From positions 160,001 to 224,000 of the forward strand of contig CAVUVW010000027.1 in NCBI GenBank assembly GCA_963745035.1: DNA of 64,000 nucleotides, given 5' to 3'. This document shows positions 7,097 to 52,872 of the stretch, piece by piece. Numbering within the stretch: position 1 is the first letter of the stretch; every line of letters begins with the position of its first letter. Source of the DNA: an uncultured delta proteobacterium. Lineage in GTDB: Bacteria > Desulfobacterota > Binatia > UBA9968. The notes under the pieces were generated by a model. That model was not told the origin of the DNA and ran no database searches. It worked only from the letters and a program-made list of their open reading frames with translations. The translations under genes were made by a program, and so were the position numbers.

Positions 7097-7167
7097 AGTT
7101 TACCAGGCTATTAAAACACATGACTCGCGAGTGTGCTTGTTGCCCTACCGCGGGCAGGAGGGAAGCG

Positions 7168-8509
7168 ATGATTCGGATCGTTCACATCGTCAACCAGTTT
7201 TTCGCCGGTATCGGTGGTGAAGACAAGGCCGGGGTAGGGGTTGGTGTGACCGCCGGGGCCGCAGGCGCAGCGCGCGGGCTCGAAGCGCAGCTTGGCGGCC
7301 GTGGCCAAGTCATCGCGACCATCCATTTCGGTGACAATTACTTTCACGAGCAAAAGCAAGAGGCGCTGGCGGCGATACTCGCCGAAGTGGAAAAGCAAAA
7401 AGCGGACGTGGTCGTTGTCGGTCCGGCCTTCAATGCCGGACGCTACGGGCTGGCTTGCGTGGAGATTTGCCAGGGTATCAGCGAACGCCTCGGCCTAGCA
7501 TGCGTGACGGGTATGGAGCCGGAGAATCCCGCCGTTAGTCTGTATCGAGATGCCCACAACGAGAAAGTGTTCCTGTTTCCAACCGCCGAGACGACGGCGG
7601 GAATGGCCAGTGCTTTGAAAGTTGTTACGCCGTTTGCCTGCCGTGTTGCCCTCGGTGAAAAGATCGGTACAGCGGACGCCGAAGGTTATGTAGCGCGCGG
7701 CATTCGCCGCCTGACCCAAGTGGATCGACCGGCGGTCGATCGCGCCATCGACATGCTGCTCGCCAAGGTTGCGGGCGAGCCGTTCCAAACTGAAGTGCCG
7801 ATGGAAGTCTGGGACAAGGTCGCGCCCGCTGCGCCGCTGCCCGATGCGGCTGCCGCCAATCTCGCAGTCATCTGCACAGGCGGCGTGGTGCCGTGGGGCA
7901 ATCCGGACGGGTTCAAAACCTACCGCAACACCTTCTGGCGCAAATACAATTTCGCCGAGCTGAAATCGCTCGACGTCGGGCAAGTGGGAAGCGGTGCACG
8001 GCGGCTACAACGTCGCCTTCATGAATCAGAATCCGCATTACGGCATGCCGCTCGACGCGCTGCGTTCGCTGGAAAGCGAAGGCAAGATCGGCGCCGGCAA
8101 ATTGTATCCCGCCTACTACGTCATCCCGGGCAATCAAGGCTCACCCGCAGTCATGCGCCGCGTCGGCCAGGAGATCGGCGCCGACTTGAAGAAAGAGGGG
8201 ATCGACGGCGTACTGCTCGTCGCCACGTGAGGAACCTGCAGTCGCAGCGGCGCTGTGATTAGCAAGGAACTCGATCGAGCAGGACTTCCAGTAGCGATGA
8301 TCAGCGCCATGTATCCGGTGGCGGAGCAGGTCGGCGCGAGCCGCATCGTCAAAGCAGTTGCCATTCCTCATCCGTGCGGTGATCCGAGTCTACCCGCGGA
8401 CCTCGACGGCCAATTACGCCGCGAAATCGTCGCGACGGCTCTCAAAGCTCTCGAACAAAAGGTGGATACGTCCACCGTCTTCGCGCCGAAGATCGCCGCG
8501 AGCGCATAG
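7168..8509 (+). CDS. Glycine/betaine/sarcosine/D-proline reductase family selenoprotein B (GrdB-like); Sec at TGA 8228-8230; frameshift near 7977
   Basis: RIVHIVNQFFAGIGGED, GPAFNAGRYG, HGGY, DGVLLVAT-U-GTCSRSG and AIPHPCGDP; the frame continues through the TGA into ORF 8255..8509. Confidence 0.9.
8235..8267 (+). promoter_or_regulatory. Bacterial SECIS-like hairpin downstream of the GrdB Sec codon
   Basis: Stem agtcgcagc (8240-8248) / gctgtgatt (8252-8260) with ggc loop, extended by tgc/gca and cc/gg; loop about 19 nt after the UGA. Confidence 0.72.
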
Positions 8510-8595: not shown

Positions 8596-9900
8596 ATGCG
8601 CCTTGAGTTAGCGGAGTTTCCCGTTACGAGCATCTCGATCGGCGAGCGGTTTCATTATGATTCCGCTGAGCTGACGGTGGACCGCGCCGCCATCGAGCAG
8701 GCAGTCTTGGCAGAAAAGCGCATCGAAGCGGCGTGGCTCGAAGTGGTCGCGCCCGGCGATCGAGTCAGGATCACCGGCATTCGCGACGTCGTCGAGCCGC
8801 GCGTGAAAGTGCGCGGCGGCGGACAAGTATTCCCCGGCGTGCTCGGACCAGTCGAGGCGGTTGGCGAAGGCTGCACGCACCGGCTCTCCGGCATGGCGGT
8901 GTTCGTCACGGCGGAATACGAGGGCACGGTACGCGCCGGTCTCGGCGTGCAGCGGAGCGCTATCCTCGACATGTGGGGCGAGGGCGCGGCTGCTTCACCG
9001 TTCAGCGCCTTGCGCGGCGTGGTGCTCAACTTACGATTGGCGCCGGGCCTTTCCGAATTGACCGCCCACGCGATCATCCAGCGCGCCGCTTTCGAGACGG
9101 CAAAAAAATTGGCGGAAACGACTGTCGGCCTGACTCCCGCGAAGACGGAGGTCTTCGAACTCGGCGGCGCAGCGCCGGAACTGCCCAAGGTGCTGCTGAT
9201 TCAGGGTTGCCTCACCGACAGCCCTAATCCGCACTCCGGCGTGAGCTACTTCGGCTTGCCGATCCGCGATTCACTGGCGACGGTGATTCATCCCAACGAA
9301 TTTCTCGACGGCGCTTTTGCGATGTACGCCACCCGGTGCATCGCGTATTTTCCGGTCACTTGGGATTGGCAGAATCATCCGCTTCTGCTCGGCCTGTACC
9401 GCGCCCATCGGCGCCAGGTGAATTTCCTCGGAGTCATTCTGGAGCGGATTCGCTACGACACGTTTCACGGCAAGGAAGTCATCGCGCACAACACCGCGCA
9501 GCTTGCCACGCAGCTCGGCGCGGAGGCGGCGCTGATTTCGTGGCTCGGTTCCGGAAACGCTTTCGTCGACGTGATGCTGACATTGCGCGCCTGTGAGCAG
9601 CGCGGCATCAAGACCAACTTGGTCACTTACGAGTACGGCGGCAAAGATGGAGTGGACTCGCCGCTGCTGTTTTATACCGGGGAAGCGGACGCGATCACCA
9701 GCACCGGCAGCCGCGATCGCTGGATCGACCTGCCGGAGGCCGAGAGAATCGTCGGCCCCTACGAAGAGATCAAAGTGCTCAGCTATCCCGGTGCGCCGCT
9801 GACGCCGGCGCGCGGGCGTTTTACTCTCGATGCGCGCGACATGATTCTCGGCGGGGTGGATTATTGGGGCAGAGGCAATTGGACGTGCGCCGCCTATTAA
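8596..9900 (+). CDS. Glycine/sarcosine/betaine reductase component B proprotein (GrdE/PrdA-like), copy 1
   Basis: MRLEL start, RITGIRDVVEPRVK, THRLSG, IHPNEFLDGA, QNHP, GNAFVD, CEQRGIKT and DAITSTG. Confidence 0.88.
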   Translation: MRLELAEFPVTSISIGERFHYDSAELTVDRAAIEQAVLAEKRIEAAWLEVVAPGDRVRITGIRDVVEPRVKVRGGGQVFPGVLGPVEAVGEGCTHRLSGMAVFVTAEYEGTVRAGLGVQRSAILDMWGEGAAASPFSALRGVVLNLRLAPGLSELTAHAIIQRAAFETAKKLAETTVGLTPAKTEVFELGGAAPELPKVLLIQGCLTDSPNPHSGVSYFGLPIRDSLATVIHPNEFLDGAFAMYATRCIAYFPVTWDWQNHPLLLGLYRAHRRQVNFLGVILERIRYDTFHGKEVIAHNTAQLATQLGAEAALISWLGSGNAFVDVMLTLRACEQRGIKTNLVTYEYGGKDGVDSPLLFYTGEADAITSTGSRDRWIDLPEAERIVGPYEEIKVLSYPGAPLTPARGRFTLDARDMILGGVDYWGRGNWTCAAY

Positions 9901-37550: not shown

Positions 37551-39045
37551 ATGAGCAAGATAATGACAACAGGCGAGATGGGTTCCGGCGCGTTGAGCCG
37601 CTCAGAAAAAGCGGCGCACCCGCTGGAGCAATTATTGGAAGGCTTTAGTGCCGATTGTCGTAGGGAGTGGCGTTGTTGTTCTTGCCGATTCCCGAAGGGC
37701 TCACGCCCAACGCCTGGTATTACTTCGCGCTGTTCGTGGCGGTGATCATCGCCTTGATTCTTGAGCCGATTCCCGCCGCGGCAGTGGGATTGATCGGTGT
37801 GACGGCCGCTACAGTGGGACTCCTGGTGACACCCAAGCCGGCCGACGCCATCAAGTGGGCCCTCTCAGGATTTCAGGACGGCACTGTTTGGTTGATCTTC
37901 GTCGCTTTCATGTTTGCGCTGGGCTACGAGAAGACCGGTCTGGGTCGGCGCGTGGCGCTGAATCTGGTGAAATGGCTCGGCAAGAAGACACTTGGCCTCG
38001 GCTATGCCGTGGCGTTGGCGGATCTCGCCCTCGCGCCGTTTACGCCGTCGAACACCGCGCGCAGCGGTGGCACGATCTTTCCGGTGATCAAGAATATTCC
38101 ACCGCTCTATGGCTCGGAGCCTAATACTCCGACAGCGCGCAAGATCGGTGCGTACATCATGTGGACCGCGTTCGCCACGACCTGTCTGACCAGCGCGATG
38201 TTTCTCACTGGTCTGGCGCCGAATCTTTTGGCGTTGTCGTTGGTGAAGAGCACCGCAAAGGTCGACATCACCTGGACGGAATGGTTCATGGGGATGGCGC
38301 CAGTGGGAATCGGGCTGTTTCTCGATACTGCCGCTGCTCGTCTACAAGATCTATCCGCCGGAGCTCAAGAGCAGCCCCGACGTGCCGGTGTGGGCGGCAG
38401 CCGAGCTCGGCAAGATGGGCCGCATCAAGCTCAAAGAGATCGGCATGGCGCTACTCGCAATGCTCGCTCTTGGGCTTTGGATCTTCGGCGGCGACTTCAT
38501 CAATGCGACCACAGTGGCGCTGCTGGTGTTGTCGTTGATGGTGGTAACCCGCATCGTCGAATGGGACGACGTGCTCGCGCACAAACAGGCGTGGAACGTG
38601 CTCGTGTGGTTTGCCACTCTGGTGACGATGGCAGACGGTTTGAACAAGGTCGGTTTTCTCAAATGGTTTGCCGGCGGCGCGGCCAGCGCCCTGGGCGGCT
38701 ACTCGGTAATGACCATCCTCGTGGCGCTGACGGTGGTGTACTTCGTCGTGCACTACATGTTTGCGAGCCTGACCGCGCATACCACCGCGTTGCTGCCGGT
38801 GCTACTCACCGCGGCGATTGCGGTCCCCGAGATGCCCGTGAAGCTGATTTCCTTGCTGTTCTGCTACACGCTCGGCTTGATGGGGATCATCTCTCCGTAC
38901 GCGACCGGCCCCGGCCCGATCTATTACGGCAGCGGGTACGTGACCCGGAAAGAGTTCTGGACCTTGGGTCTGATCTTCGGAGCGATTTACCTCGCGGCGA
39001 TCCCTGGCGATCGGTATCCCGTACTTGCGGTTCTATCTGGGCTGA
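37551..39045 (+). CDS. DASS-family di/tricarboxylate transporter (CitT/TtdT-like), three frameshifts
   Basis: P.PEGL...AW, GYEKTGLGRR, PFTPSNTARSGG, HYMFASLTAH and SPYATGP.PIYYGSGY. Confidence 0.9.
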
Positions 39046-39072
39046 GATCAGCGCATTCTCCCGAGTGGGATC

Positions 39073-39095
39073 AGGGCTCGCGAAAAGCGAGCCCT
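39073..39095 (+). terminator. GC-rich hairpin after the DASS gene
   Basis: agggctcgc-gaaaa-gcgagccct 9-bp inverted repeat; weak U-tract. Confidence 0.45.
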
Positions 39096-39160
39096 GCGTG
39101 TTTGTGGTCAATGAAATTTCAAGCACGCGTCAAATACCAAATATTTTTGTGATGTGAAGC

Positions 39161-41277: not shown

Positions 41278-41706
41278 CGCGCTAGCTCAGCGATGGGCCG
41301 AGGGGCTCAGGGTCCTGGCCGCGTTGCCAAAGCAAACAAGCGAACAGCACAGCAGAAATTTGTTTCAACTTTTGCCTCCCAAAAACCATCGATCGCAAGA
41401 GCCAAACCTTTCGTCAGGGACTCTATACCGTTTCTATTCGCTCATGCTACCTGCCATAGACCGCAGTGTGAAGTAACGTTGTTACGATTTCTAAAAACTA
41501 TAATGGCCCGCGGCCGAACATCCGCTCATGACCTTGGTCTTGCGGTGCTCAGCGTATGCGTCAGCAATTTTGAACGCAAAACGAGGCATAATGAGGTGCC
41601 TCCCGGACTACGCTTGTTGCCTTGGACTCCGAACTGCTATGTTTGGAGTTCACCGTCTCGCTTCAACAGCTCGCTGTTTCAGCAGTTGGACGCGAGTAGA
41701 TTCCGT

Positions 41707-43344
41707 ATGGAAATTTTTGACGCTGAATTCTTTGTGCTGACCCTCGCCCTGGTGGGCGTTGTAATCATCATCGCGGCGCTACTCTCCGGCCTCATCGATA
41801 GCAGCGACCTCCCGCAAGTCGGCGTTTTTTTAGCGCTCGGCGCGATGCTCGGCCCGGCCGGCTTGGGACTGCTCGACGTGACTCTGGATTCGCCGATCCT
41901 TCGCGTCGTGGCTACCTTGAGTCTGGTTCTGGTCTTGTTCACGGATGCCGTCAGCCTGACCATCGCGGAAATGAGCCGCCATGGCGCGCTCGCCTTTCGT
42001 GTCTTGGGTCCCGGGACACTTCTTTCCGCAGCACTGGTGTCCCTGGCGGGATGGAAGCTGCTCGAGCTTCCTCTTCCGGCAGCGGCGATCCTGGGCGCAG
42101 CGCTCGCTTCGACCGACCCGGTGATGCTGCGCGGTTTGCTTCGACGACCGGGTCTTCCGGAACCAGTGCGCCTGGCGCTGCGGCTCGAAAGCGGCCTTAA
42201 CGACGTGGTTCTTCTGCCCGTCATTCTGGTAGCGATGTCATTTCTCGGTCGGGAAGCGTTTCCCACACCCACCGAGTGGGCGCGCGTCGGTCTCGACCTG
42301 TTTCTTTTGGGACCCGGCGCCGGAATCGCAGTGGGGCTGCTCGGAACCTCCGCGCTGGAAATGATCAGGCGTAAGACTGGAGTCCTGCGCGATTATGAAT
42401 CGATTTATTCACTGGGCATAGCCTTCACGGCTTACGCCGCCGCGGAAGCGGTTCACGGCAGCGGCTTTCTCGCCGCGTTCGCGGCCGGGTTGACCATCGC
42501 GGCCCTCGACGTCGAGCTTTGTGATTGTTTTCTCGAATACGGCCAAACCACTGCCGAGATGGCGCTGCTTTTTACCTTCGTGCTCTTCGGCGCCTCACTG
42601 ATCTGGGGTGGATTTACCGTGTTGAGCTGGCCGGTTGCTCTCTTCGCCCTGGTCGCGCTGCTGATCCGTCCGGTGGCATTTTTCATCTCCCTCGCCGGCA
42701 CCCGGTTGGACTTCCGCAGTCGCATGTTGATCGCCTGGTTTGGACCCCGCGGTCTCAGCTCGCTGCTCTTGATCCTCGTGCCCGTGTTCGCCGCCGTTCC
42801 CGGCACCGAGCCTTTGTTTTTCATCTGCTGCTTTTTCGTCCTGCTTTCCATCGCCCTGCACGGCGGTTCGCTGATGTTCCTTAAACGCAATGGATCTCGA
42901 GCCAGAGTGCCGGCGACCGCCGCGACCAATCTTGCCGGCAACGCCACGCCAGATCTGCCGGCGGATTCAACTTCAACAACGGGCACCAACCAAGGCGTCG
43001 ATCTCATCACGATCCCGGAGATGCGCGCTATCCAGCAATCCGGCGCGCCGAATCTCGTTCTCGATGTGCGCGCCGAACGCAGTCTCGCCGCCAGCGACCT
43101 GCTCGCGCAGGGGGCGGTCAGAGTTCCGCCAGATCGCCCGGTCGAGCGTCTCAAAGAGCTCGACGTACCGCGCCAGACCTGGCTCTTCGCCTTTTGTGCT
43201 TGACCCGACGAAGCGACAAGCGCCCGTGTGGCGCGAGAGCTTAAAAAAGCCGGATGGAGCAAAGCGCGCGCGCTGGTCGGCGGCTGGGAAGCCTGGCAAG
43301 CAGCCGGATTGCCGGTCGAGGCGAAGCCGATGCAGGCAATTTGA
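41707..43344 (+). CDS. CPA1-type cation/H+ antiporter fused to a C-terminal rhodanese domain with predicted selenocysteine (TGA 43201-43203); 545 aa with readthrough
   Basis: ASTDPV, LESGLND, SGFLAAF and WFGPRG antiporter motifs; rhodanese LDVR...FAFCA-U-PDEATSARVA...LVGGWEAWQAAGLPVE continues in frame past the TGA to stop 43342-43344. Confidence 0.85.
43211..43242 (+). promoter_or_regulatory. SECIS-like hairpin after UGA 43201
   Basis: Upper stem gcgcc (43220-24) / ggcgc (43230-34), G-containing loop cgtgt, lower stem aagc/gctt. Confidence 0.62.
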
Positions 43345-43416
43345 TGATTGCGACGTGGTCGTCATGGTGTCTACCAAATCTGGACAGAAGTATAGTTTTC
43401 AAAGCGCTTTGATTTT

Positions 43417-43468
43417 TTGAACGTCTCGAACGGGGCGAAGCTGTGAACGGCTTGAATGCAACCGTTCA
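43417..43468. repeat. Degenerate TTGAACG (reverse complement of CGTTCAA) repeat
   Basis: ttgaacg 43417, tcgaacg 43426, gtgaacg 43443, ttgaatg 43452. Confidence 0.5.
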
Positions 43469-50296: not shown

Positions 50297-51698
50297 GTGC
50301 GCCTCCCTCGAGGTTCTCGAACGGCACGCTGCGCCGGTTGATCTGCTCCTCGATGTCCTGTGGAAATAAATTTTCCTTTATCATCGCGAAGTCGCCGTAG
50401 GCGCCATGCACCGGGCCGAGCAAGTTGCGCTCGGCCAGGAGCCCCGGCTTGCGCGTGCCGAACTTCGGCAACTTGTCGCGATATTTTTGGTAGAGCTCAT
50501 ACCACGTGCGGGTCATTAGAATGTAATAGTCCAAAGGCACCGGCGGCTGCTCGGCCTCTTTGCACAGCGCGGTCGACGGCTCGCGCCGCCACTGTTGCGG
50601 CCGCGGGAAGATGCCGCGCGACATCAAGTATTCGAATCCGGAAGTCATGGACTTGACCGCTTCCTCAACAGTCTTGAACCCATGCGGCCGCGCCATTTCG
50701 ACGCCGGAGACAAAGCTCGGCTGCACCATGCCGTTGCCGAACACTTCGACCGCGTCTTCCATCCAGCGTACCCAGTTGTCCCAGCCGACGCGCTCAGCCT
50801 TGCCGGGATTGATCCACGGAAAGAGCTTCTTGTCCCACACCTCCATGTTGAAGTGGATGTGATCGGCGCCGGCATCCTTGTAGCGCTGCACTTCTTCGCG
50901 CGGCCGCGCGTTGACCTCGAAAGTGATGCGCGGCTTCGATGCGATGTTCTTGATGGCGCGAATGTACTCTTCGTAGAAATCCACTTCGCTCTTGCTATGC
51001 AGTGTCTTGGTGATGGTACCGCCGCTGAGCACGAAGTTTTGCCCGGCGCCGATCTTTTGCGCGTCCCCGGCGACGTGCTCGCATACCTTGACCACATCGG
51101 CCACCGACTTTACCGGCGCGTTCAAGGTGAAGTCGCGCGACAGCTTCATCTGGCGCGCGTTCTCGTTGATATCGCAGAATTTACACTCTTCCTTGGCGCC
51201 CCAGTATTGGCAGTTGCGAAAGATCGTAATGAATGAGCCGAAGGCGACAATCTCATGATAAGGCGTGCCGTCCGGCAAGTTCTTGAAATAGTAGTCCGGC
51301 GTTTTAGGGATACGCACGTGCGCTACTACATGCCCGTCCACGGTCAAGACGAGCCTGCCATCAACGACGTCGATGAGATAAGGTGAGTAGGGCGACAACG
51401 AAGTTTGAATAGCCACCGGGCGCATGTCGTAGGGCCCGTTCAAAAGAACAAAGTGCTCGGGGACGCGCCGGTGCTCGTTCCTCTTGAACTCCGACATCGG
51501 CACGAGGTCATAGGAAAACAATCTATACGACTTGACCAGCGCGCCTGCCGAAGCGTCGAGGGCGGCGTCGCTGAACCAGTGGCCGAGGCTCAGCATATGT
51601 TGCTTGAGGATCGTCTCCTTGGGCACGTCCGGGTATTTTTTGAAATACGATTCCAACGCATCAAGGTTGGAGTCCGTCGCGGCCGACGTTTTTGCCAT
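50286..51698 (-). CDS. Radical SAM protein with atypical Cx8CxxC motif
   Basis: NCQYWGAKEECKFC, LSGG, FNMEVWD...PGK and SFVSGVE. Confidence 0.8.
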   Translation of the reverse strand: MAKTSAATDSNLDALESYFKKYPDVPKETILKQHMLSLGHWFSDAALDASAGALVKSYRLFSYDLVPMSEFKRNEHRRVPEHFVLLNGPYDMRPVAIQTSLSPYSPYLIDVVDGRLVLTVDGHVVAHVRIPKTPDYYFKNLPDGTPYHEIVAFGSFITIFRNCQYWGAKEECKFCDINENARQMKLSRDFTLNAPVKSVADVVKVCEHVAGDAQKIGAGQNFVLSGGTITKTLHSKSEVDFYEEYIRAIKNIASKPRITFEVNARPREEVQRYKDAGADHIHFNMEVWDKKLFPWINPGKAERVGWDNWVRWMEDAVEVFGNGMVQPSFVSGVEMARPHGFKTVEEAVKSMTSGFEYLMSRGIFPRPQQWRREPSTALCKEAEQPPVPLDYYILMTRTWYELYQKYRDKLPKFGTRKPGLLAERNLLGPVHGAYGDFAMIKENLFPQDIEEQINRRSVPFENLEGGARVS

Positions 51699-51759
51699 CT
51701 CACGCTTCCTTTCGCCGGTAATCTATCCCTTGCTTTGCCCTGCGCGCTCGCCCGAGCTG

Positions 51760-52872
51760 CTATTTCAAAATAGCCTGTGCCGCTTTGAAAGCGGGCTCGC
51801 GCACCTTCTCAAGTTTTTCTTCCGACTGATTCTCCACTTGCAAGAAATCAGTAACCGAGATCGCATCTTTCGCCGGGATCGTGCCCATTTCTCGCAGCCA
51901 GCGGGTATCGACATCGAGGCGGCGCGTCGCCTGACCAAGCGCCTTGGAAACTATCTCCTGCCCTTCGCGCCCCAGCAGCCAATTGACGAAAACTTTGGTG
52001 CTGTTTGGGTGCGCCGGCGCCTTGATGATCGCCAGATTGCCGCTGCCGCTGGTACCGTACGTTCCCTCTTTAAGCGTTGGCAGCGCCCTGATCGGCAACC
52101 CGGCCTTCAAAAACGGCGCAAACGTATAATAACTGAGGCCGATCATGACGGCGACACGCCCCTTGGCCAAACTCTCCGCGAGAACGCGCTGATCGCGCCC
52201 GAGATATAAATCCTGGGCGGCCAGATTCTTGAGATACTCTTCGCCTTTCGCATGCCACATGTACGACCAGTTAGCGTCGCCGCCGCCCAGACTGCGCGGA
52301 TCGAGTAGTCCGATTTTCCCTTTCCACTTCGGATTGAGAAAATCATCCATCGAGCGAAAGTCCTCAGGCTTCGCCAGGTCGGCGTTGTAGTAAATGGTCT
52401 GCGGCAAGAAAGCTTGAAAACTGTAGATAAACCTTTTTGCCTTATCGACCCACAGATGGCCGCCCCACCATTGCTTTTGCTCTTTGACTTCCGGCAGCGT
52501 CATCCACGGTTCGATCGGGTCGATGATCCCTTCGTCCAACATCCCTGAGATGATCGAAGAAGAACCGCCGATGTGCAGATCGAAGTGGCGCACGCCCGCT
52601 TTGAATTCATCCGCCATCCGGCGCACCCCCGCGCTGCCGCGGGCGGTAAACGTTTCGACTTCGATGCCGTAGCGTTTTTTGAATTGATCCTCGACCTGTT
52701 TTTTCAACTCGGCGCTGGCGGGCAGTGATACCGTTACCTTGCCTTCTTTCTTGGCGGCATCAATCACCTTGTCCCATTCCAACGGCCCGGCTTTGCTTTG
52801 TTGGCCGTAGACCGCAGGCGCGAAGATCAGGAGCCAAAACAGGCCAAAAGACAAAACATTTCTCGCGACCAT
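51760..52872 (-). CDS. ABC transporter extracellular solute-binding protein (Fe3+/AfuA-like)
   Basis: Signal peptide, AAKKEGKV, PKWKGKI and APAHPN..KVFVNWLL..EGQ. Confidence 0.87.
   Translation of the reverse strand: MVARNVLSFGLFWLLIFAPAVYGQQSKAGPLEWDKVIDAAKKEGKVTVSLPASAELKKQVEDQFKKRYGIEVETFTARGSAGVRRMADEFKAGVRHFDLHIGGSSSIISGMLDEGIIDPIEPWMTLPEVKEQKQWWGGHLWVDKAKRFIYSFQAFLPQTIYYNADLAKPEDFRSMDDFLNPKWKGKIGLLDPRSLGGGDANWSYMWHAKGEEYLKNLAAQDLYLGRDQRVLAESLAKGRVAVMIGLSYYTFAPFLKAGLPIRALPTLKEGTYGTSGSGNLAIIKAPAHPNSTKVFVNWLLGREGQEIVSKALGQATRRLDVDTRWLREMGTIPAKDAISVTDFLQVENQSEEKLEKVREPAFKAAQAILK

Follow-up and report, generated by a model that had tools for sequence, protein, structure and literature searches.

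We analysed the gene at positions 41707-43344 (+ strand) of a 64,000-nucleotide (nt) stretch of DNA from an uncultured delta proteobacterium (Desulfobacterota; Binatia; UBA9968), which covers positions 160,001 to 224,000 of contig CAVUVW010000027.1 in GenBank assembly GCA_963745035.1. This whole stretch is called the window below, and coordinates are those of the window unless another contig is named. The open reading frame (ORF) obtained with translation table 11, 41707-43203, halts at a TGA (43201-43203) midway through a rhodanese domain. From the sequence, we consider it highly probable that 41707-43344 is a single gene for a protein of 545 amino acids (aa) in which an antiporter, a linker and a rhodanese domain containing selenocysteine (Sec, U) follow one another, and that the UGA at 43201-43203 is decoded as Sec. 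The features of the locus, with the evidence for each in brackets, are as follows.

41707..43344, +: complete candidate selenoprotein gene, CPA1 antiporter plus linker plus Sec-rhodanese; 545 codons plus stop (read-through translation, Pfam)
41773..42879, +: Na+/H+ exchanger membrane domain (CPA1, NhaP-like), aa 23-391 (PF00999, AlphaFold2 (AF2), Foldseek, conserved residues)
42520..42528, +: CDC motif C272-D273-C274 (TGT GAT TGT) at the N-terminal end of helix 269-305 (sequence, alignment)
42910..42990, +: flexible linker, aa 402-428 (AF2 confidence, variability among homologues)
42991..43326, +: rhodanese homology domain, aa 429-540, of the LYCAU/CxU (seleno)protein type (PF00581, NF041203, AF2)
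43195..43203, +: C497-A498-U499 (TGT GCT TGA), probable Sec codon at the position of the catalytic Cys (alignment to 6mxv, homologues)
43220..43234, +: putative core hairpin of a selenocysteine insertion sequence (SECIS), 5-base-pair stem GCGCC/GGCGC and loop CGUGU (comparative pairing)
43342..43344, +: true stop TGA, with a second TGA directly after it (sequence; orthologue ends lie no more than a few codons away)
43396..43422, +: small palindrome TCAAAGCGCTTTGA with a T-run after it, possible but weak terminator, unflagged by the terminator scan (sequence inspection)

The coding sequence starts at ATG 41707, passes through TGT 43195-43197 (C497), GCT (A498) and the TGA of codon 499, and stays open for 46 further codons up to the TGA at 43342-43344. 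Translated with TGA as U, the 545-aa product continues from WLFAFCAUPDEATSARVA to its end at PVEAKPMQAI, and the peptide after CA-U is identical to that given in an earlier reading of the letters alone (hereafter the sequence-only reading). ORF listings start upstream at 41293; orthologues start instead at the position of ATG 41707 (MEIFDAEFF). This start is backed by orthologues beginning MEIFNAEFF or MESFSPQFF, and the sequence 5' of it is unconserved. Inspection of the tail 3' of the TGA at 43201-43203 found no start codon and no separate ORF. In the read-through protein, the Pfam Rhodanese profile (PF00581) matches aa 441-533 with profile positions 7-102 of 102, so that the rhodanese domain straddles codon 499 and is found end-to-end only with the TGA read through; the match thus spans the codon at which the sequence-only reading had seen the ORF stop in the middle of a rhodanese fold. 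A phmmer alignment places U499 at the Cys of the CGGGFRS active-site loop in PDB entry 6mxv, with Cys497 two residues before it.

The TGA is conserved together with the protein encoded after it. A search that reads through stop codons found an orthologue in 8 of the 31 genomes of the genus, our own genome included, and all eight have one TGA with the downstream protein conserved, which, together with the fusion loci described below, greatly exceeds what chance would give. Among 400 further genomes of the phylum, antiporter matches occurred in 15, and only that in genome G287 reaches through the rhodanese domain; this fusion is 41% identical, and its codon at the site is likewise TGA (LYCAUTHEATSARVA). 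Scanning species-representative genomes yielded 80 loci, and 89 loci in total were examined with one script. Antiporter and rhodanese domain lie in one frame at 57 of the 89 loci, with TGA at the Sec position in 52 and Cys in 5, and the protein is conserved downstream, which answers the earlier question of whether homologues would keep the TGA or replace it with Cys. The filter of the script left out L042, L088, L114 and L120, in which C-x-U is also visible, as well as L104, whose upstream frame is broken; the rest of the loci are contig ends or plain antiporters. One Cys-form orthologue, in a Capsulimonadaceae metagenome-assembled genome (MAG; L061, 3733-4173), carries a tandem pair of rhodanese domains (CTCPNDETS, CSCPDDKTS) behind the antiporter. 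The carriers of the fusion belong to at least nine phyla overall, including Chloroflexota, Thermomicrobiota, Acidobacteriota, Gemmatimonadota, Myxococcota, Planctomycetota, Actinomycetota, Armatimonadota and Vulcanimicrobiota, and two isolates, Dictyobacter aurantiacus S27 and Ktedonospora formicarum SOSP1-1, are among those in Chloroflexota.

Protein databases agree with the genome loci. Among the best 150 of 7118 matches to cluster representatives (E up to 1e-3), 30 proteins stop exactly at ...C-x, ten contain C-x-C and one contains C-A-T. The 10 Cys-form representatives and the 5 Cys-form genome loci have their Cys at the same alignment column as the UGA, as the sequence-only reading had expected. 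In a protein collection clustered at 90% identity, all 120 homologues among the matches listed end at the Sec codon, as had been foreseen for the output of gene callers; they carry PF00999 only and are named "cation:proton antiporter" or "NhaP-type antiporter", and the named NCBI entries among them are Candidatus Binatia and Deltaproteobacteria MAGs. A widespread family is therefore systematically mis-annotated as a "cation:proton antiporter" of about 498 aa that lacks half of its last domain. Downstream of the UGA, the pattern xDEATSARVAxELxxAGWxxARALxGGWxAW is kept from 86% down to ~37% overall identity, and C497 and U499 are invariant in a set of 49 fusion proteins. The tree of these 49 proteins intermixes the phyla and needs at least three switches between Sec and Cys, which indicates that the antiporter-rhodanese fusion spread by horizontal transfer. 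Sec forms outnumber Cys forms by about ten to one in the species genomes (52 vs 5), suggesting that selenium is functionally preferred.

The hairpin GCGCC-CGUGU-GGCGC (43220-43234) starts 16 nt after the UGA and lies within the coding sequence. The sequence-only reading had proposed a SECIS-like hairpin at about this distance, and its pairing proved to be conserved in the Sec genes: aligned from the UGA, 52 of them share AGC GCC CGK GTG GCG C, which folds as a 5-bp stem (alignment columns 20-24 with 30-34) closed by the loop C-G-K-G-Y. Pairing is kept in 99.2% of the cells over 50 distinct Sec sequences, and three of the five stem pairs show compensatory double changes, from C-G to U-A in L043, L085 and L118 and from G-C to A-U in L080, L093 and L109. 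At the peptide level these changes pair an Ala-to-Val with an Ala-to-Thr replacement, and the reverse; therefore, the RNA constraint shapes the peptide, and the two co-varying replacements, with the stem kept, provide a clean example of a SECIS shaping its protein. Furthermore, four-fold degenerate third positions never change at columns 24 and 30 of the stem but vary freely at columns 15 and 18, just upstream of it, and the hairpin is present in the minimum free energy fold of 48 of the 52 Sec forms versus none of six Cys-form domains. Its spacing and G-containing loop fit what we take to be the rules for bacterial SECIS elements. We propose that this hairpin, together with the selA, selB, selD and tRNA-Sec of the genome, would direct the decoding of UGA 43201-43203 as Sec. 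A long-range fold suggested by RNAalifold on five close orthologues was unsupported by the wider set and was discarded.

The core formed by the UGA and the hairpin is common to other genes at the nucleotide level, because the depth of metagenome contigs (run X1) rises from ~5-13 to 169-184 over 43206-43239, and many other metagenome contigs match just ~43195-43243 and then diverge. In soil and rhizosphere metagenome contigs over 43189-43256, the depth of this core is 10-40 times that of its flanks, and unrelated contigs share ~40 nt. This ~40-nt signature could serve to mine Sec-rhodanese genes.

The machinery for Sec insertion, which the sequence-only reading had set down for confirmation, is encoded in the same genome. 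The genes selA (592 bits), selB (347) and selD (385) and the tRNA-Sec (76.7) all score above curated cut-offs on contig C17. The three protein genes lie in a row at C17:315264-319742, the tRNA-Sec is found ~52 kb further along (371273-371363), and selD itself has an in-frame TGA. Elsewhere, selA is present in five of five other Sec-form genomes tested and in three of five Cys-form genomes, so that this necessary condition for Sec holds wherever we looked. A sequencing error, which the sequence-only reading had named as a refutation, finds no backing in the contigs of three DNA runs from three studies: they bridge position 43201 and differ at 9-17 other sites, but no variant is listed at the TGA. 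One RNA-library contig covers 43159-43374, which alone is no proof of transcription. Position, conservation, databases, machinery and contig support are thus five independent lines in agreement, and on their strength the UGA is in all likelihood a Sec codon.

The membrane part of the protein matches Na_H_Exchanger (PF00999) over aa 23-391 with 127.9 bits against a cut-off of 26.2 (E 5.6e-37). The AF2 model, built on the 49-sequence alignment, has a mean predicted local distance difference test score (pLDDT) of 89.1 and a predicted template modelling score of 0.84. It shows 13 membrane helices with two interrupted helices, near ASTDPV 134-139 and WFGPRGLS 344-351, a disordered linker of ~27 residues (aa 402-428, pLDDT <50) that differs in length and sequence from one homologue to another, and a compact alpha/beta domain of alternating strands and helices at aa 429-540 (pLDDT >90). 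The best Foldseek matches are PaNhaP (4cz8) and MjNhaP1 (4czb), with E 8e-12 and a TM-score of 0.73-0.75 on the target, and KefC (8bxg, rank 9), SOS1 and SLC9C1 follow. In the 49 fusion proteins, T136 is conserved in at least 90%, and D137, N165, D166, R321 and R348 are invariant. We take the TD of the unwound helix, the ND and the conserved Arg to be the ion site, an assignment that comes from the NhaP literature; since these residues are kept, the antiporter domain looks competent for exchange.

The sequence-only reading had also pointed to a CDC motif in the membrane domain, which is indeed encoded by TGT GAT TGT at 42520-42528. In the 49 fusion proteins, C272 is invariant and C274 is conserved in at least 90%. 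The pentapeptide LCDCF occurs in most representatives of the fusion clade and is absent from most non-fusion relatives, and in more distant plain antiporters this site reads CPC, CSC or CGC or lacks such a motif. By counting helices back from the C-terminus in the AF2 model, we infer that the CDC end of helix 269-305 faces the cytoplasm, as does the tethered rhodanese domain. A complex prediction between the membrane and rhodanese domains of L063, a natural Cys-form orthologue, scored 0.00, which is evidence neither way.

The same module is found on another membrane protein of this genome. On contig C10 (~50797-52057, - strand; L140:138-1091:-), a DedA/VTT membrane protein (PF09335) is followed by a Sec-rhodanese domain. 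The module at its end (C10:50989) reads CSUPNEATSARVA with the same hairpin AGCGCCCGGGTGGCGC, and its rhodanese domain scores 48.7 bits in Pfam. The sequence-only reading had called on DedA-rhodanese fusions as the Cys-containing comparator; such a fusion does exist, but in this genome it is itself a Sec form. TGA-containing rhodanese matches in frames of ~383 aa, resembling the DedA/VTT fusion, also occur in several relatives within the genus. The Sec-rhodanese with its embedded SECIS thus appears to be a portable unit with no necessary tie to the antiporter, as a single genome has it on at least two membrane proteins. Meanwhile, two proteins of the CDC antiporter clade, P0023 (472 aa) and P0026 (457 aa), carry in place of the rhodanese an AhpC/TSA domain (positions 1-37) ending ...GHW, and stop right where the redox Cys or Sec would come. 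They are probably cut at a U/CxxC redox codon and may represent a second fusion to a Sec redox domain. A metagenome scan with P0023 for DNA encoding an antiporter-AhpC/TSA fusion found only the non-fusion WFGPKGVA clade, and a protein search with the P0023 tail matched only P0023 itself, so that the evidence for this second fusion consists of the two truncated proteins and the Pfam match. The presence of an AhpC/TSA-type domain where the rhodanese would be favours a redox role for the tail.

We tentatively favour, while giving it somewhat less than an even chance, a reading in which the rhodanese tail lies in the cytoplasm and, instead of working as a free enzyme, controls antiport as a sensor of selenol/thiol redox state or of sulfane sulfur. 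On exposure to oxidants or to sulfane sulfur/selenium, the selenolate of Sec499 would form a selenenylsulfide with Cys497 or become a perselenide/persulfide. This change could be relayed by thiol exchange with C272-D-C274 at the cytoplasmic end of helix 269-305, and the altered state of Sec499 would switch K+(Na+)/H+ exchange, much as the C-terminal domain of KefC gates K+/H+ exchange in response to glutathione adducts. In its full form, which we regard as possible and more doubtful than the regulatory role itself, the proposal is that Sec499/Cys497 in exchange with the CDC couple oxidative or sulfur/selenium stress to K+(Na+)/H+ exchange and hence to cytoplasmic pH, as a covalent analogue of KefC gating that was spread by horizontal transfer among soil bacteria, in at least nine phyla. 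Such gating, if real, would provide a new coupling of redox or sulfur stress to ion and pH homeostasis, and the presence of the Sec form in two cultured Ktedonobacteria makes the gating idea testable.

The likeness to KefC and KefB (8bxg), an antiporter combined with a C-terminal cytoplasmic domain that senses thiol chemistry, is a functional analogy only and not one of membership. KefC is a CPA2 protein with a KTN/RCK domain and non-covalent glutathione-adduct ligands; the fusion has no KTN/RCK domain (Pfam finds PF00999 and PF00581 only). The closer relatives of the membrane part are the NhaP-type CPA1 antiporters (4cz8, 4czb; NhaP2/CvrA, NF003716), which share PF00999, the fold, the TD and ND motifs and the arginines. 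In contrast to these, the fusion carries a rhodanese domain where they have TrkA_C/RCK or nothing, and has the clade-specific CDC motif. It also scores well under the cut-offs of the K+/H+ equivalogs of NhaP2/CvrA (NF003714-6; 133.7 against a cut-off of 355, 112.9 against 309 and 84.9 against 471 bits), and on the fusion no NCBIfam model attains its cut-off. For the tail, the top NCBIfam match is the rhodanese-related (seleno)protein model NF041203, rhodanese_LYCAU (E 3e-24 to 3.8e-23), with which it shares the [LF][YF]C[AT]U motif, a Sec two residues after a Cys, and the existence of Cys/Sec alternatives. Unlike the fusion, in which the domain ends a 13-helix antiporter, NF041203 models a stand-alone protein of 126 positions. 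Sec within or beside a transporter is also seen in MerT-like proteins, E1-E2 ATPase (UxxC), SO_0444 Cu/Zn efflux (UxC) and YeeE/YedE, and TsoB, a rhodanese/DsbD fusion (NF045694), combines a rhodanese with a membrane redox protein. None of these is a secondary-active cation/proton antiporter, and the match to TsoB is negligible (13 bits against a cut-off of 805).

A 2026 review describes five rhodanese-like selenoprotein forms, including form 3 (NF041203, CxU), and lists MerT-like proteins, E1-E2 ATPase, YeeE/YedE, Sao proteins and SO_0444 as Sec-bearing transport proteins (PMC13188914). It links most Sec-bearing transporter proteins to metal or metalloid resistance and suggests that Sec serves some families as a metal ligand; its main text has no mention of antiporter, exchanger, NhaP, sodium or DedA (PMC13188914). 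A 2022 review lists COG0607 form 2 with CxU (PMC9312934), and rhodanese-related sulfurtransferases, with a UxU variant, were already among the selenoproteins counted in a 2007 paper (PMC1976440). We found no description of an antiporter-rhodanese selenoprotein fusion in the full-text literature, a scope that leaves aside subscription papers and supplementary tables, which may list such genes. The earlier identification of a hidden selenoprotein is therefore supported, but its novelty is limited to the antiporter fusion, which is apparently undescribed, as the Sec-rhodanese CxU module was already known. With the fusion, the few Sec-bearing proteins of transport would come to include a secondary-active cation/proton antiporter.

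Three other explanations were weighed. The best of them, in our view unlikely, makes the rhodanese a membrane-anchored sulfur/selenium transferase or a reductase of chalcogen or metalloid oxyanions (selenite, tellurite, arsenate or chromate) to which the antiporter, as a coupled partner and no target of regulation, supplies protons or ions. The implication of most Sec-bearing transporters in metal or metalloid resistance, as given in the 2026 review (PMC13188914), would suit such an enzyme. So would the location of the Sec exactly at the catalytic position, the occurrence of the module on the unrelated DedA/VTT protein, and a weak NCBIfam likeness to the ChrE chromate-resistance rhodanese (24.6-29.4 bits) and to MoeB/MoeZ sulfur-carrier rhodanese domains. 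However, the ChrE and MoeB/MoeZ matches are far under the curated cut-offs, no sulfur, selenium or resistance genes are found among the neighbours, the acidic loop is without the cationic residues of anion-binding rhodaneses, and the AhpC/TSA-type replacement in P0023 and P0026 points to a generic redox role and not to a particular substrate.

Still less probable is a soft-metal site (Cu+, Hg2+, Ag+, Cd2+) formed by C-A-U and the membrane CDC, so that the transporter would sense or handle metals. In favour of it, neither the CxC/CxU nor the CDC motif varies, and the review lists Sec in MerT-like proteins, P-type ATPases and the SO_0444 Cu/Zn efflux family (UxC) and suggests it as a metal ligand for some families (PMC13188914), but the full CPA1 alkali-cation/proton site and the NhaP fold are kept, metal-resistance genes are absent from the neighbourhood, and no metal-binding family matched in Pfam or NCBIfam. 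Finally, that the TGA is a true stop in a truncated or decaying gene, a sequencing error or a site of non-Sec read-through is very improbable: gene callers and all 120 listed homologues do end there and apparent frameshifts occur elsewhere in the window, but a decaying tail, which here has no start codon or ORF of its own, would not keep 46 codons across phyla with the TGA fixed in 52 genomes, nor a hairpin with compensatory changes that the Cys-form relatives are without, and in the contigs of three independent DNA runs the TGA is unchanged although other sites differ.

Several observations weigh against a sensor-type Sec-rhodanese that gates the antiporter, or against parts of this picture. 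First, the domain assignment is marginal by score, as the Pfam rhodanese match of 23.6 bits is barely over its cut-off of 22.2, and NF041203, at 81.5 bits for the whole protein and 85.1 for the domain alone, stays below the curated 115 bits, so that the protein is not filed as a member. The active-site loop, U-P-D/N-E-A-T-S, is acidic, unlike the loops of thiosulfate sulfurtransferases, which makes classical sulfur transfer doubtful. Second, a 96-nt region folded alone was no more stable than its shuffles (z = +1.1), so that the support for the hairpin is comparative and not thermodynamic. A search of 43100-43450 against Rfam with E up to 10 found no family matching the element; the mir-218 and CRISPR-DR21 (E 0.77) matches that it returned were judged to be chance. 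A lower helix, columns 10-14 with 39-43, was paired in only 64.8% and was dropped. Third, the association of CDC with the fusion follows one clade and is not an independent correlation, and the gene has no informative operon partners. At last, two other genes of the window are split over two frames, meaning that the assembly has errors; these look like indels and not substitutions.

The gene stands alone in its neighbourhood, with an ArfB-like gene divergent upstream and a TctC-type binding-protein gene convergent downstream. The neighbours, which are an ArfB-like RF-1 gene, an AAA_33 kinase, an APH, a Na/sulfate symporter, TctC and a sulfatase, give no functional clue. The symporter (Na+/sulfate, PF00939; 37667-39157, + strand) is one of the two split genes, with profile positions 17-229 in the frame of 37667 and 253-456 in the ORF 38382-39152; this second apparent frameshift suggests either indel errors of the assembly or two pseudogenes. 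The other is a GrdB-like gene (7120-8509, + strand), in which GRDB positions 2-267 lie in the frame 7171-7980 and positions 263-347 in the frame 7967-8227. Its second frame runs on through a TGA in the motif VATUGTC, in frame at 7769-8509, so that the earlier statement that GrdB uses UGA for Sec in this genome stands, though for a gene copy split over two frames. This looks like a Sec codon and, near 7970, either a frameshift or an indel of the assembly. Downstream, at 8596-9900, lies a gene for Gly_reductase component B.

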